NCBI GenBank assembly: GCA_951406725.2
Contig: OX597831.1
Location: forward strand, 59,334,001-59,398,000
DNA: 64,000 bases
Reading direction: 5' to 3'
From: Octopus vulgaris
Lineage: Eukaryota
The notes below the pieces were generated by a model. The model ran no database searches, was not told where the DNA came from, and saw only the letters and a program-made list of their open reading frames with translations. Shown here piece after piece: positions 23,201-64,000 of the stretch (position 1 is its first letter; every line of letters begins with the position of its first letter). Position numbers and translations under genes: made by a program.

Positions 23201-23926
23201 AGATCAATGTTTAGATATTACTTACGGGATGAACAGATAATTACTAAAACTCTTTAATTACGGAGTCATTTGTGGAACTACCAAAAATAGGAACATAGCA
23301 TTAGAAATTCATATTGATTTCAAACATCTTATACATGACTGAAATTTGTTTTCATACACTACCTATAAATTAAATGAATTAAAACTGCTGGAAAGATATA
23401 ATCGTACTGTATAAATTAAACGCAGAGGTATACCTCACATCAGCTGCATTGAAGAAAATTTGATATCAGAGGAAATATTTATACAAATACTGTTGGTGTT
23501 ACCATTATACGCAAAGTCCACAAGCTGGAAATATCAATCTAGTAAAAGACTGAAGCCTTCATATTTTGGAATACATGGAAAATAGGTTACCATCAGATAT
23601 GTAGACAGATGTGGATACGACTTTTGAATATAATTTCTGCAGTTTGCATAACTGAAAATATCATTTGCAGATTCAGATTCTTCATGAGTATAAGTTTAGT
23701 AAAATGCGGCAATCATTCTAATAATTAAACCAGCAATAATTCTAGTGAAACTCTATGAATGCTGAAAGGTGAGTGAGAGATAGGAATATGAGGGAAAGGA
23801 TAACAAATAAATGATGTATTTTAAAGATCATACGAGTCATATATACATACACACAAATACATATATATATATATATATATATATATATATATATATATAT
23901 ATATATATATCAGCAGATCTCACTAT

Positions 23927-23973
23927 CCTGGGCTGATGACGGGTTAAGACCCAGAAACATGCATGTCCTCGGG
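23927..23973 (+). ncRNA. Type I hammerhead ribozyme
   Basis: CCTGGG-CTGATGA-CGGGT TAAG ACCC A-GAAA-CATGCATG-TC-CTCGGG: full core, palindromic stem III, GUC site at 23965-23967. Confidence 0.85.
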
Positions 23974-24280
23974 TGTGAATCTAGGCTGAAAGGGGTGCTT
24001 GCCTCCCCTTCACAAATATAAGGACACAGAAAATGTGTCAAAGCCGACAGGGAGCGCTCGATGCTTCCTGGGGCTAAACAGCGGTGGTGTAATTCCCATA
24101 TGGGTCTGTCACGTTAAGTTGACAGTATACAACCACTATATCGCTCCACCACCGCTCATGTCTCTTTGAGGCATTTAGAAATTTAATATTTCTGATTACG
24201 ATAACCAGTGAATAAATTTCACTGTAAATATATATATTTGTGAAGGCTGGACAGGCACCTCAATCAGCAGATCTCACTAT

Positions 24281-24327
24281 CCTGGGCTGATGACGGGTTA
24301 AAACCCAGAAACATGCATGTTCTCGGG
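24281..24327 (+). ncRNA. Type I hammerhead ribozyme (second tandem copy)
   Basis: CCTGGG-CTGATGA-CGGGT TAAA ACCC A-GAAA-CATGCATG-TT-CTCGGG; GUU site at 24319-24321. Confidence 0.82.
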
Positions 24328-24814
24328 TGTGAATCTTGGCCGATAGGGGTGCTTTCCTCCCCTTCACAAATATAAGGACACAGAAAATGTGTCAAAGCCG
24401 ACAGGAAGCGTTCGATGCTTCCTAGGGCTAAACAGCGGTGGTGTAATTCCCATACGGGTCTGTCACGTTAAGTTGACAGTATAAAACCACTCTATTGCTC
24501 CACCACCGCTCATGTCTCTTTGAGACATTTATAAATTTAATATTTCTGATATATATATATATATATATATATATATATGCATATACAGATGTGTGTGTGA
24601 ATGTGTATGTGCGTGTGTGTGTGTGTGTGTGACTTTATGTATGAACTCAGTGACGATGTCCTATAATGTAAGCAGAAATAGATCAGAGAATAAAGTCATG
24701 AAAAGGGCAGCAAGAACTGCGACCACGTCAATTGATATTGCTGCTAAAACAGCCACCAGCAACAGTGCAACTACAAGTATTGCTGCTGATACAAGAACAA
24801 GTATAACGACAACA

Positions 24815-24931
24815 ACAAGTAACAATAATAATAACAATAATAACAATAATAATAATAATAATAATAATAATAATAATAATAATAATAATAATAATAATAA
24901 TAATAATAATAATAATAATAATAACAACAAC
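24815..24931. repeat. (AAT/AAC)n microsatellite
   Basis: Seen directly. Confidence 0.95.
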
Positions 24932-59900: not shown

Positions 59901-60194
59901 CAATAGTCTAATGTGACCGCTTCATATTTAATTAAGAAATATATATATATTGTACACATTACTCCTTGGATTTCGAGGAGAGTTGACATAATTTGTGAGC
60001 CTTCACGTATTTGTAAAACTATCAAACCAACTTTTGAATAACCTATATATAAACATACATGCAGGAAGTAAATAGACACCTTTAATTTTCAAAATTTCTG
60101 ATCTAACCGTCATTATATGTTTTCAGCAGTGTAGAATTTACAATGTAATCATTCTTTTTCATTCCTTGTGCCATTATATTAATCATTTGCGAAG

Positions 60195-60400
60195 AGTAAA
60201 AAATCAGCAGATCTGTAAGATTTTCAAAGAGGTCGTATTGTTGAGCAATCTGAGGCTGGACTTAGCCAGCGTAAAATTGCCGAAAATTTTAGAATTTTTC
60301 TTGCTACTGTTAATAGAATTATTGTGAAATTCCAAAGCCAAGGAAAAGAATCAATAGATTCTCGTTCAGCGCGACCTGGGCCCTCAGAAAGGAAGAGAAT
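60195..60400 (+). pseudogene. Tc1-like transposase N-terminal HTH fragment
   Basis: [47 protein letters not shown]...RSARP. Confidence 0.75.
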
Positions 60401-61827
60401 TGTGGAATACAAACCCCGTTCGAATGGGTTTGGCACAAGCAAAAAATATATGTGTAGACGTTTATGTGTGCATACGTGTGGTGGTGGTGGTGAGGGGGGG
60501 CATAGCCTTAGGGCTGAAACGTATAAACGAATAAAAGAATATGTATTAGTCAGTTGTGGGGGCTGGGGACTCCTCTCACTTGGAATAATAATGGTCAAAT
60601 TACAAAGAATTATCATTAATATTATTAAGGCAGCGAGCAGTGAGAATCCTTAGAACGTCGGCCCAAATGCTTTGTGACTTTTCGGCCATTTCTGCGTAAA
60701 TAGTCCAAATCCATCCTAGGTCAACTTTCATCGTTTTGATGTCCATCGTTTCGGTGTCCACAGAAAAAATTACTACTATTGCCCTAGGTCTATCTAATTA
60801 ACTAGCATCCTCGCACGAAATGTCAAGCTTTGAGTTTATAAAAATGAGAAGTATTAATGCTATTATTTATACGCATAAAATACATGAATATTGGCTTGGA
60901 AAAATGACCTGCTGCATTTCGGGATAGAGACAAACTATTGCCTACTTGGCATTTGATAAATTGATATATTTAATAGCATATCCCCTCATTCTTGAAAACT
61001 TAATTCCATTTATTTGGAAAATTGCTCACAAATCGATGCCAAAATTCTTCAGATTTTGAAGCAAAGTGAAATAGAGTATAATTGTTTAATTACTTAACTT
61101 GTGTCCCGCTCAATGTTACAATAGTCCGAAAAGATGACTGTTATATGAATTCAAGTTATGAAAAGAATGAGGAGAGACTAAACCTACCATAAATATTATC
61201 ATAATCTTTCTCTGAAATATTTGGGCTCGATGTGGTTAGCAATATCATGTAATATTAACACCCCTGTATCACTGACTAAAGATGTGTGTTTTTGCAACAA
61301 CTATTCCTTGAAAGAGTCTAATTTAGGACAATGCTTCTCTACATTAATATCTTGGTTTTTGACTTACATTTTTTATTATAAATCTTGCATCAAAAAGTGA
61401 GCATAATGTTTTTACGGTTGCAGTTCCGGTTTAGGCATACATACTCATTTTTCATTGGATGGAAACCATTGTCATTTCTGTCTAAGGTATTATTCAGGCA
61501 TTAAACTATGACTCCACTGCATCCTTGAACAGAAAGAATTATAAGCTATTGAAGTTGTAATTTTTTAAATCCTATTGTACACTCATATAGTACTTCCTTC
61601 TGAAACTGAAACAGACGTATATTTAGTTTGTACACCAGGTTGTTGGTCACGCAATTCCTAAGCAATATATATATATATATATATATATATATATATATTG
61701 AGAGAAGGACGGGATGGACGCTTCATTTATGTGCTGGTGCCGCATTATGTCGTACGCGAAAGAGAGGATCTGCATCCCCAACGTAGAATTTTTGATGTAA
61801 TATATGTCCTTGGGGTAGTAATTGTGC

Positions 61828-61905
61828 GCGGCTGAAGAAGTCCATAGACACACATTATGCATTGTTATAATTCCGTCTAATAAAGGCCCGAAACATATGT
61901 ACCGC
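61828..61905 (+). ncRNA. Type I hammerhead ribozyme
   Basis: GCGG-CTGAAGA-AGTCC ATAGAC...GTCTA..GGCCC-GAAA-CATATG-TA-CCGC, inside a ~245-bp element (61698-61942) bounded by (TA)n on both sides. Confidence 0.78.
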
Positions 61906-64000
61906 TGAATCCTTGGCATCATGTTCTTATTTTGATTAATTTATATATATATATATATATATATATATATATATATATACACACACACTCATATATATAT
62001 GTGAGTTATCAGTGAGGAATAATCAATCCGTGCTTATGTGTCTTCACTGTACTTTATTGTAAATACATGATCGTGTTCCCGGACATTCTGGATTTTTTCA
62101 CAGGTATAAGACAAGACGCATGGCGTTTAGCGTGTTGCAGTCGTAATTGCAAGATCCTGGTTTCGACTCCAGCCTGGTGGTTGCGTTGTGTTCTCAAGCA
62201 AAGTCCTCCCCCTGGCAATATGTCTATTTTTCAACTCTCCCTATATATATATATTGCAAAATTTATGTATGCTTTCAGTAAGTGGAACATGTCTGTCGTG
62301 TGTGCAGTATTGAGCAGGGTTTTTTTCTAGAAGGGTAAGAGAATGTTATTAATGCAATCAAGTATCCGCCTTCCGCGACATCGATTATATAGACTGGGAA
62401 ATACAAATGTACTACGACACTGTGCCAGTATGATTACTGGCATCGTACAGACAACGTAAAGAGCTGGAACAGTTTCCTCAAACCATCAAATACTAGCACT
62501 AATCTGCCGCACCACAAGACATTATTAGCTGTTATATTAAAGGTGTACTTTCAAATCATTATCATACAATAAAATATTTATTGGAGTATTGTATTATCTT
62601 CCAAGCATTGCTGTATATAATAACATAAATGTAGACATATACATGCATGCAACTTCATTTCGGTACGTAAGTATCCAAATAAATGCATCTTGATGATGCA
62701 TTTTCCGTTGCAATTATTATCTATAAAGATAGATACCTATATAATACATACATATGTACATGCATACATACATTGATACAAATATGAATAAACACACGCG
62801 TGCTGGCGCACATACACGCATATAGATATAGGCATATGACTGCCCACTCATATATATATATATACATGTATTGATGATCAATCTGACTTCAAGTTCCACC
62901 TCACGGCTTGTTCAATGTGGTTTGAAATAATAGCCTTACATTACATACACATACATAGCTGCATACGCCTATGCATACACATAACCCCCTACACATATAT
63001 ATGTACATGTGTAATATGTACATGTGTTTGTTATATGTTCGTGCATTTGTATTCTGGGGGATATCGAAATATTATTGTGCTCTTTATTTTTGTATTTGGA
63101 TCTCATGATGTTTTACCTTTGCAATTAAATGAGGAATTGCATTTATCCATGTAATCATTGAAAAATGCATTTAGGGTCTGGAATCATTGAAATATAATCT
63201 ATTATCAACCAAATGCATCAGGAAAATCATCTACTTTAGCGTTAAAACATTCTGTGGAACTGATACTTGTTCTTCCTTTATGTTATTATGTTTAGTCCCA
63301 TTATTGAGTTCTAAGGCTGTGAATATATGAAATGTTATGGGTTTCAAAAATCCATTACTGTTACACCGAAACAACAATGTGAACAATTGGACTAAAACAT
63401 ACTTCACAGCTGTCAGAGTGCTCCAGCATTTAGAAGGAAATAAAAAAATCCACTAGTTGAAGAATGATTTCTTTGTTTTTCTTTATTTTTTCTGTCTTAT
63501 TGCATACGCATCAAAATCGGCCTATATTCGCAGTGTATAGCACACTATTCTTCTTAATTTATTTTTACGAAAATAAGGGAAAACAAGGGAATGAAAATAT
63601 AACAAAAAATGATTCCTTTCGATATATTAAAGATATACTTTGATACTGAGTAGTATCAAACAAAATATATTTGTGTGATATTAATGTAGTATTTTATCGT
63701 TAAATACATAGTGCCAAATAGTAGAATGCCCTTTTCGATATGCACGATAAAAGCAACTATTTTTTATCTCTTTTGAATATATCTATATCAAATAAATTGA
63801 TTGAATCTATTCCCAGAGTATTAGGTACAACACAATGTTCTATAAGATAACTTTCCGTAAGTCATATATAGAATGGTGGAAATTTGAATCAGCTATTAAA
63901 ATTTGTCAACATTATGTGTTTGAAATACTGATGAGTACCTTAGAACAGCGGTGAGTGTTGACAGCTAGGTAAATCTGTTTGATAAAAGCGTTTTTCCCTT

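Follow-up and report, generated by a model that had tools for sequence, protein, structure and literature searches.

Why do short elements with hammerhead motifs recur between runs of TA dinucleotides in the 64-kb stretch of DNA analysed here (the window)? An earlier note on this DNA had described six such elements and read them as insertions targeted to (TA)n microsatellites. Its observation is confirmed by the present analysis, and its interpretation is partly supported. The favoured explanation, to which a probability of about 80% is assigned, is that seven unrelated hammerhead elements lying in TA would be ends or retrozyme derivatives of Penelope-like elements (PLEs), put into pre-existing (TA)n by a Neptune-type reverse transcriptase (RT)/GIY-YIG enzyme.

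All six elements were located only a few bases away from the coordinates first proposed for them (E1 to E6, Table 1), each containing a type-I hammerhead-like motif. Every one of them is flanked to left and right by TA runs of 8 nt or more, the ends of E6 and E7 and the right ends of E2 and E3 being placed only by using TA itself. A seventh TA-bracketed element (E7) had been overlooked, as had two with TA contact on one side (E8 and a decayed relative of E4). The seven bracketed elements can indeed be called unrelated, since blastn among them gave no similarity. As had also been claimed, no other target duplication is obvious: by eye, the 25 nt outside both TA tracts differ in 7/7 elements, a duplication consisting of TA itself being invisible at such sites.

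Table 1. Positions of the elements, fragments and repeats discussed in the text (window coordinates).
Feature	Position	Strand	Details
E1	23911..24548	+	1.8 copies of 354-nt unit; cores 23933, 24287; TA 50 nt left, 30 nt right
E7	28730..29027	+	one core, 28842; TA 26 nt left, 20 nt right
E2	29631..29944	.	head-to-head pair; cores 29723(-), 29785(+); TA 29 nt left, 11 nt right
E3	36489..36946	.	head-to-head pair; core 36673(+), mirror core decayed; TA 13 nt left, 11+10 nt right
E4	44755..44935	-	core 44892 (CCGA); palindrome 44822-44933; TA 35 nt left, 9+8 nt right
Decayed E4 relative	8387..8450	+	81% over 64 nt; 3' end adjoins TA 8451-8486
E5	45164..46110	.	core 45417(-) (CCGA); TA 18 nt left, 60 nt right
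E6	61699..61941	+	one core, 61832; TA 34 nt left, 38 nt right
E8	56482..56720	-	minimal core 56610 (CCGA, lowest score); TA 3' only; right boundary approximate
TA-indifferent minimal-hammerhead copy	28461..28560	+	core 28467; 146-243 nt from TA
TA-indifferent second copy	56945..57042	+	core 56949; 85% over 98 nt; 436-464 nt from TA
PLE reverse-transcriptase fragment	29048..29427	-	downstream end adjoins TA 29028-29047
SINE 5' half, split by E5	44954..45128	+	165/174 identical to intact paralogue
SINE 3' half, split by E5	46171..46404	+	193/207 identical to intact paralogue
Intact paralogous SINE	38626..39037	-	short internal TA run 38862-38880; proxy for E5 empty site

The motifs were sought with a scan in which helices I and II, together with a short palindromic helix III, had to be able to form around the core; TA was not used, and the scan, having been written after the sequences had been seen, was not blind. 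Ten type-I hammerhead-like cores were found in the window, against a mean of 0.03 and a maximum of 1 in 60 block shuffles. The core CUGANGA ... GAAA ... UH is exact in E1, E2(-), E3, E6 and E7, while CCGA stands for CUGA in E4, E5 and E8, and CGGA in E2(+). In public contigs the majority letters mend helix II, both in E7 (at 28858) and in the motif at 28467. In minimum-energy folding of monomers a clear three-helix fold was obtained for one of nine motifs only (28467), and a search of the window with Rfam returned no match at gathering score, nor, in the 150 of 228 weak matches listed, any hammerhead. Those listed were microsatellite-like miRNA models. Self-cleavage is therefore only putative, given the missing Rfam match, the three CCGA cores and monomer folds that mostly turn out otherwise.

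With 126 TA runs of at least 8 nt in the window, and SINE and LINE tails adding more, short elements might often look bracketed by coincidence and then be hand-picked; indeed, of the 44 TA-bounded intervals measuring 120-1100 nt, 34 are without a detected hammerhead, some tracts are common to an element and a SINE tail or LINE end, and six of the eight elements tested came from the earlier note. Against this, the TA-blind scan recovered all six plus two more, and these eight sit in shorter TA-bounded intervals than circularly shifted positions do (p 0.001-0.004; 10, 4 and 2 of 2520 shifts were as extreme with minimum TA lengths of 8, 10 and 12 nt). Ends defined by homology fall within 12 nt of TA in 8/12 cases for hammerhead elements and in 10/58 for controls (Fisher p=0.0012), such positions making up 7.5% of the window, and the homology breaks 0-3 nt from TA in 7/8 cases. 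Other microsatellites (CA/TG, GA/TC, TAA, TAG and TATC runs), which account for 46% of the microsatellite bases counted in the window, are touched by none of 14 ends. Beyond the window, the 3' end of the E2 family runs on into TA in 87 contigs of run X1 and 101 of X4, from two organisms, these public-contig counts being of sequence variants and not of loci. TA bracketing of hammerhead elements thus exceeds chance; the coincidence reading is largely refuted, and hardly any credence is left for it.

The preference is not shared by every hammerhead. The family represented by the cores at 28467 and 56949 lies off TA, both in the window and in public contigs, where its loose ends (median 255 nt) are mixed AT-rich in 320, 398 and 248 contigs. 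The word "specifically", used earlier of ribozyme elements in general, is therefore an overstatement; once this family is excluded, 8/8 homology-defined ends of hammerhead elements lie within 12 nt of TA.

This sorting bears on whether (TA)n is simply fragile. Long (TA)n extrudes cruciforms, and host nucleases could cut these, any RNA-derived cDNA then being captured without a preference encoded by the element. Hammerhead-free pieces do touch TA (two of the 10 control ends are those of one LINE fragment, 29956-30685), and tracts adjoining elements are slightly longer (median 27 vs 18 nt, p=0.06). However, of the SINE outer ends only 2/16 make contact with TA, and capture of a generic kind would not be expected to differ between families as TA contact does here. 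Moreover, the flanks of E3 and the TA run of the intact SINE are short. Since TA is avoided by 14/16 SINE ends as well as by one hammerhead family, and since one inferred target is short, cruciform nicking or capture, offered earlier as an option, is disfavoured as the cause and appears highly improbable.

What E5 interrupted can be seen in a paralogue. E5 splits a SINE at an internal TA run, and the intact paralogue, 93-95% identical to the two halves, has TA precisely where the break falls (~18 nt, interrupted once), a proxy for the pre-insertion state that is one case, from a paralogue rather than an orthologue. At the corresponding site an older paralogue (844-1091) lacks a TA run. Within the window, two SINE copies (44954-46411 and 47109-48033) are interrupted at this internal TA run or beside it. 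The earlier idea of TA as a landing pad, present before insertion, is supported by the split SINE and by the family-wide TA ends (of one family, E2). For the stretch 28431-30685, which has no unique flanks (the three longer repeat tracts were left out of this comparison), no orthologous empty site was seen in public contigs among the 20 of 2588 loose-end rows listed, and none of the 15 of 230 joints listed skips a whole element; in the raw-read run X14, only 7 of 12.9 million reads matched, too few to be informative. None of the 13 public runs with matches was of RNA.

Alternatively, insertion itself might make TA, with RT or repair adding or expanding it at junctions in merely AT-rich DNA. 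Short AT/TA microhomologies are found at most junctions, a 14-nt slip duplication marks the left junction of E5, whose 18+60 nt of flanking TA far exceed the run in the intact SINE, and the purified PLE protein favours ATT sites (PMC11167929). Nevertheless, that SINE already carries TA at the break, E1 and E6 break up compound CA/TA/TG tracts of a kind that occurs window-wide without elements, and summed flanks (58.7 nt) are not significantly longer than the 46.6 nt that intact tracts, weighted by length, would lead one to expect (p=0.17). Insertion-made TA is accordingly considered quite improbable. The same comparison leaves the earlier suggestion that insertions multiply the microsatellites without support: net TA gain is unsupported, splitting accounts for at most 7 of 93 TA tracts, and only the trivial division of one tract into two stands.

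Returning to insertion into pre-existing (TA)n, the likely agent is a PLE enzyme, as had been proposed, judging from PLE-type architecture and a nearby RT relative of Neptune/Nematis type. PLEs typically leave truncated copies, either inverted or in partial tandem, that are extended on one side; here E1 is a tandem, and E2, E3, E4 and E5 have inverted arms with an extension, E6 and E7 being single. The E2 palindrome (29625-29883, 90%) has a right-hand extension of ~60 nt, that of E3 (36474-36809, 88%) one of ~137 nt, and E5 is a permuted 548-nt unit in partial tandem with an inverted arm. The RT fragment at 29048 shows 60% identity (E 1e-35) to P0001, a protein with RT, a CX4CX2C linker and, C-terminally, GIY-YIG; a CX2-5CxxC linker precedes GIY-YIG in P0001 and P0002, the best relatives of the fragment, which itself ends before that region. 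Naiads were considered as a source and rejected, since they lack canonical hammerheads, which are present here, and the best RT relative carries GIY-YIG C-terminally, not N-terminally.

By tblastn, P0001 and P0002 matched the window only at 29065-29412 and 13655-13930. No ORF of RT and GIY-YIG joined to a hammerhead repeat was present, nor any ORF fragment inside the seven elements; Pfam gave nothing above cut-off on five window fragments, and ARAGORN found no tRNA genes in the window. A missing ORF is expected for truncated or non-autonomous PLE copies. As no hammerhead element is joined to PLE coding sequence in the window, the clade is assigned by neighbourhood only, and PLE membership is inferred.

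We likewise infer which enzyme acted, to which clade each element belongs and that reverse transcription was target-primed. The elements would be PLE ends (pseudo-LTRs) or retrozyme-type derivatives, and a Neptune-type RT/GIY-YIG protein would nick pre-existing (TA)n and prime reverse transcription at the nick, so that the TA preference would reside in the protein of the element and not in its ribozyme. In the head-to-head pairs E2, E3 and E5, both hammerhead-sense 3' ends face outwards into TA, one being longer; such pairs fit priming from nicks on both strands, with two start sites in the RNA. Each insertion divides one tract into two, so that further elements find TA to either side of it, and repeated insertions would build arrays such as 28704-30822.

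The preference of PLEs for (TA)n is already known. The bias is described for Neptune-clade and Naiad PLEs, together with inverted copies and a 30-40 bp tail, by Craig et al. (2021, PMC8557442), who cite Arkhipova (2006). Like Neptune-clade PLEs, the window elements have a TA target that hides any duplication, copies in partial tandem, copies that are truncated and inverted, extensions on one side and hammerheads in the repeats, and the best relative of the neighbouring RT fragment has the CX2-5CxxC linker; unlike them, only non-coding ends are present and the extensions exceed the tail just mentioned. The sole PLE protein to have been purified acts on both strands of AT-rich DNA, which it cuts and extends, with two internal start sites and a preference for ATT over (TA)n (PMC11167929).

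Minimal hammerheads are carried by metazoan PLE repeats, with opposite-strand pairs 100-700 bp apart (Cervera and de la Pena, 2014, PMC4209133). Shared with the window are the type-I arrangement, a short helix I, an additional base ahead of helix II, a small palindromic helix III, pairs on opposite strands separated by a few hundred bases, and many unrelated families in one genome; in contrast, three window cores have CCGA (U4 to C), a change not found in the accessible text of that paper, and several motifs have long helix II insertions. E1, a retrozyme-like dimer whose ends were both set by internal homology and both lie at TA, resembles animal non-LTR retrozymes in its non-coding 354-nt tandem with a type-I hammerhead per unit, as does E5 in its permuted 548-nt unit (Cervera and de la Pena, 2020, PMC7229834; Li, Clavereau and Pollet, 2026, 10.64898/2026.07.22.740005). 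Retrozymes are defined by two or more successive non-coding units that each hold a complete type-I hammerhead, an arrangement found in E1 only. Word searches of the main texts of these two retrozyme papers turned up no mention of microsatellite targets, and nothing on TA targets was found in the accessible text of PMC3124438, PMC12602865 and PMC13282606. In plants, unrelated small elements are arrayed via microsatellites in the SaTar arrays of microsatellite-targeted MULEs (PMC5907723), as here at 28704-30822, and MuTAnT shares TA as a target (PMC4486113); unlike these DNA transposons, the window elements are retroelement-type ends with hammerheads.

A PLE trait that had been published, though with little quantification, is confirmed by this case, and PLE targeting would explain why many hammerhead motifs lie in TA tracts of a microsatellite-rich animal genome. 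The split SINE offers a ready empty-site control, its intact paralogues displaying the target before insertion, and the presence side by side of TA-bound and TA-indifferent hammerhead families could serve to test whether TA targeting is conferred by the CX2-5CxxC linker. It is further conceivable, albeit doubtful, that the process feeds itself, with an abundant TA-carrying SINE seeding targets genome-wide, many unrelated PLE and retrozyme families homing in, and insertions splitting and lengthening the runs. If true, modular TA-spaced arrays would grow, the TA microsatellite load of the genome would be partly made by retroelements, and the animal retroelement counterpart of the plant SaTar arrays would have been found.

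Recovery of the hammerhead elements did not depend on their TA flanks. A scan that took no account of TA, and required the core, helices I to III and a palindromic helix III of a type-I hammerhead, returned ten cores in the window (see the table) against a mean of 0.03 and a maximum of 1 in 60 block shuffles; the scan was designed after the sequences had been read and was thus not blind. All six elements listed in the earlier note (E1-E6) were recovered with a hammerhead-like core, those of E7 and E8 are additional, and three more were added through a looser scan and homology. 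As that note had also stated, the elements are unrelated, since blastn detected no mutual similarity among the seven TA-bracketed ones.

The window, with a GC content of 34%, is animal-type DNA rich in microsatellites and repeat fragments. As it contains 126 perfect TA runs (8 nt or longer), TA flanks must be judged against a proper null. When the TA-bounded interval around each element, shorter in the real positions than after shifting, was used as the statistic, the eight scan elements gave 10, 4 and 2 of 2520 circular shifts for TA of at least 8, 10 and 12 nt, and 11 anchors gave 21, 5 and 4 of 2520. Among ends defined by homology, 8 of 12 hammerhead-element ends lie within 12 nt of TA (seven within 3 nt), a distance that covers 7.5% of the window, in comparison with 10 of 58 control ends (Fisher p=0.0012; LINE and unit-X ends placed by hand, three of the ten TA-touching ends sharing a tract with a hammerhead element). 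The four remaining ends all belong to the 28467/56949 family. SINE outer ends touch TA in only 2 of 16 cases; the window SINEs are presumably akin to octopus SINEs. With boundaries partly set by TA itself, the seven bracketed elements touch a TA run of 10 nt or longer at 13 of their 14 ends, and at none of the 14 do they contact another microsatellite class. The presence of hammerhead elements within TA tracts is real and above chance.

Whether the predicted hammerheads would be active is another matter. Rfam gave no hammerhead match in the window at gathering score, nor is there a hammerhead in the 150 weak matches listed out of 228; the core reads CCGA (U4 to C) in three families with no relation to each other, which is either a real variant or parallel decay; and minimum-energy folding gave a clear three-helix fold for only 1 of 9 monomers. 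All of this counts against activity. In favour of a conserved structure, the majority letters of public contigs re-establish pairing in helix II at 28858 and at 28493.

Features of the window, with hammerhead cores where predicted
Feature	Position	Core	Description
E1	23911-24548	23933, 24287	1.8 copies of a 354-nt unit, a hammerhead in each
E2	29631-29944	29723, 29785	head-to-head pair
E3	36489-36946	36673	head-to-head pair
E4	44755-44935	44892 (CCGA)	smaller palindrome; at 44822-44933 helix I reaches ~45 bp and the inverted arm begins directly past the predicted cleavage site
E5	45164-46110	45417 (CCGA)	head-to-head pair between two halves of one SINE
E6	61699-61941	61832	
E7	28730-29027	28842	
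E8	56482-56720	56610 (CCGA)	
28467/56949 family	28461-28560, 56945-57042	28467, 56949	two minimal-hammerhead copies; looser scan and homology
Further hammerhead		8396	looser scan and homology
Intact SINE paralogue	38626-39037		TA of ~18 nt, one interruption, exactly at the E5 break point
Older SINE copy	844-1091		no TA run at the corresponding position
Hammerhead-free ~430-nt unit	36073-36475, 47337-47846		partial tandem; copies circularly permuted, 72% alike; first copy ends at the TA holding E3
PLE RT fragment	29048-29427		adjoins TA; 60% identity (E 1e-35) to P0001, a database protein with RT, CX4CX2C linker and GIY-YIG
Second PLE RT fragment	13607-13939		more diverged (27% to P0001); not TA-bound
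LINE 3' region copies	29956-30685, 55100-56340		70% alike, TA at most 17 nt after both; taken to be CR1-like
Array	28704-30822		TA, E7, TA, PLE RT fragment and decayed SINE 3' piece, TA, E2, TA, LINE 3' fragment, TA; parts mostly adjacent, not nested
Palindrome	8722-9149		77%, TA on left; tRNA-like stretch in each arm by eye, no tRNA called by ARAGORN
Palindromic or inverted-ended pieces	13038-13440, 43279-43428		adjoin TA; no hammerhead from scan
Similar-looking TA-bounded pieces	14545-14865, 54649-55088		common hammerhead-like stretch by eye, GAAT replacing GAAA
Direct duplication	6891-7217, 7696-8022		327 nt, 96.6%, spacing 805 nt

That a TA tract was present before insertion, and served as landing pad, is supported by the SINE split by E5, whose halves match the intact, TA-bearing paralogue at 165/174 and 193/207 positions. 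This paralogue is a proxy and the only such case for a hammerhead element, and no empty site at an orthologous locus came to light. Another SINE copy is interrupted at its internal TA, or next to it, by the 510-nt copy of the hammerhead-free unit, with TA on one side only.

The layout of E1 is that of a non-LTR retrozyme. In E2, E3 and E5 the hammerhead-sense 3' ends face outward into TA and one arm is longer, and the inverted arm of E4 may stem from a fold-back template switch. These arrangements are those known from PLEs, in which partial tandems, inverted copies and tails on one side (PMC8557442) as well as opposite-strand minimal hammerhead pairs (PMC4209133) are described. No hammerhead element in the window is physically linked to coding sequence, so the link to the clade of the RT fragment is inferred. 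A Mytilus protein (P0003), named Toll-like receptor 4, combines a PLE RT region with a TIR domain and is probably a gene-model chimera.

Part of 21440-31000 was found in 13 of the 24 public runs listed. Four runs were compared with 28431-30685, among them raw run X14, which contributed just 7 reads. The comparison leaves out longer TA tracts, and hence E7, and its contigs count sequence variants rather than loci; its loose-end figures come from the 20 rows listed of 2588. Among these rows, 87 contigs in X1 (organism A) and 101 contigs in X4 (organism B) run into TA beyond the E2 3' end, with agreement of 0.57 and 0.52 and a median of 12-17 letters; X12 showed no such continuation among its rows listed, from which 50 loose-end rows at repeats are excluded. 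Beyond the 28467-family 3' end, by contrast, mixed AT-rich sequence (median 255 letters) follows in 320, 398 and 248 contigs among rows listed. TA attachment is thus limited to some hammerhead families, and the earlier claim of insertion specifically into (TA)n is supported for the E2 family but not for the 28467/56949 family.

This family dependence favours an element-encoded preference over generic breakage at TA cruciforms, and a PLE protein is the most likely insertion agent. Such a protein would nick a pre-existing (TA)n run, and the nick would prime reverse transcription of the PLE's own RNA or of retrozyme RNA. According to PMC11167929, a Poseidon protein, when purified, cleaves AT-rich DNA on both strands and extends each of them, with two start sites inside the RNA and no requirement for ribozyme cleavage; its preferred site there is ATT, not (TA)n. 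Cutting and extension of both strands from two RNA start sites would yield the outward-facing pairs of the window. Each insertion would also turn one TA tract into two, a splitting that explains at most 7 of 93 tracts in the window. Beyond this, the proposed multiplication of microsatellites is unsupported: the TA on both sides of an element adds up to 58.7 nt on average, and intact tracts, weighted by length, average 46.6 nt (p=0.17), so that no net gain of TA is evident, although the E5 flanks are much longer than the TA run of the intact SINE. Literature listings, outside subscription papers and supplements, showed no study that quantifies how far PLEs multiply TA.

TA insertion of PLE-type hammerhead elements is an already known phenomenon. 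Craig et al. (2021; PMC8557442) name (TA)n as preferred PLE targets, which is why target duplications are often indiscernible, and report a CX2-5CxxC linker as the proposed mediator of TA bias in Neptune. In plant DNA transposons, microsatellite targeting builds arrays of unrelated elements (PMC5907723). For the octopus window, the reading of TA tracts as landing pads is supported, with a specificity that is family-limited.
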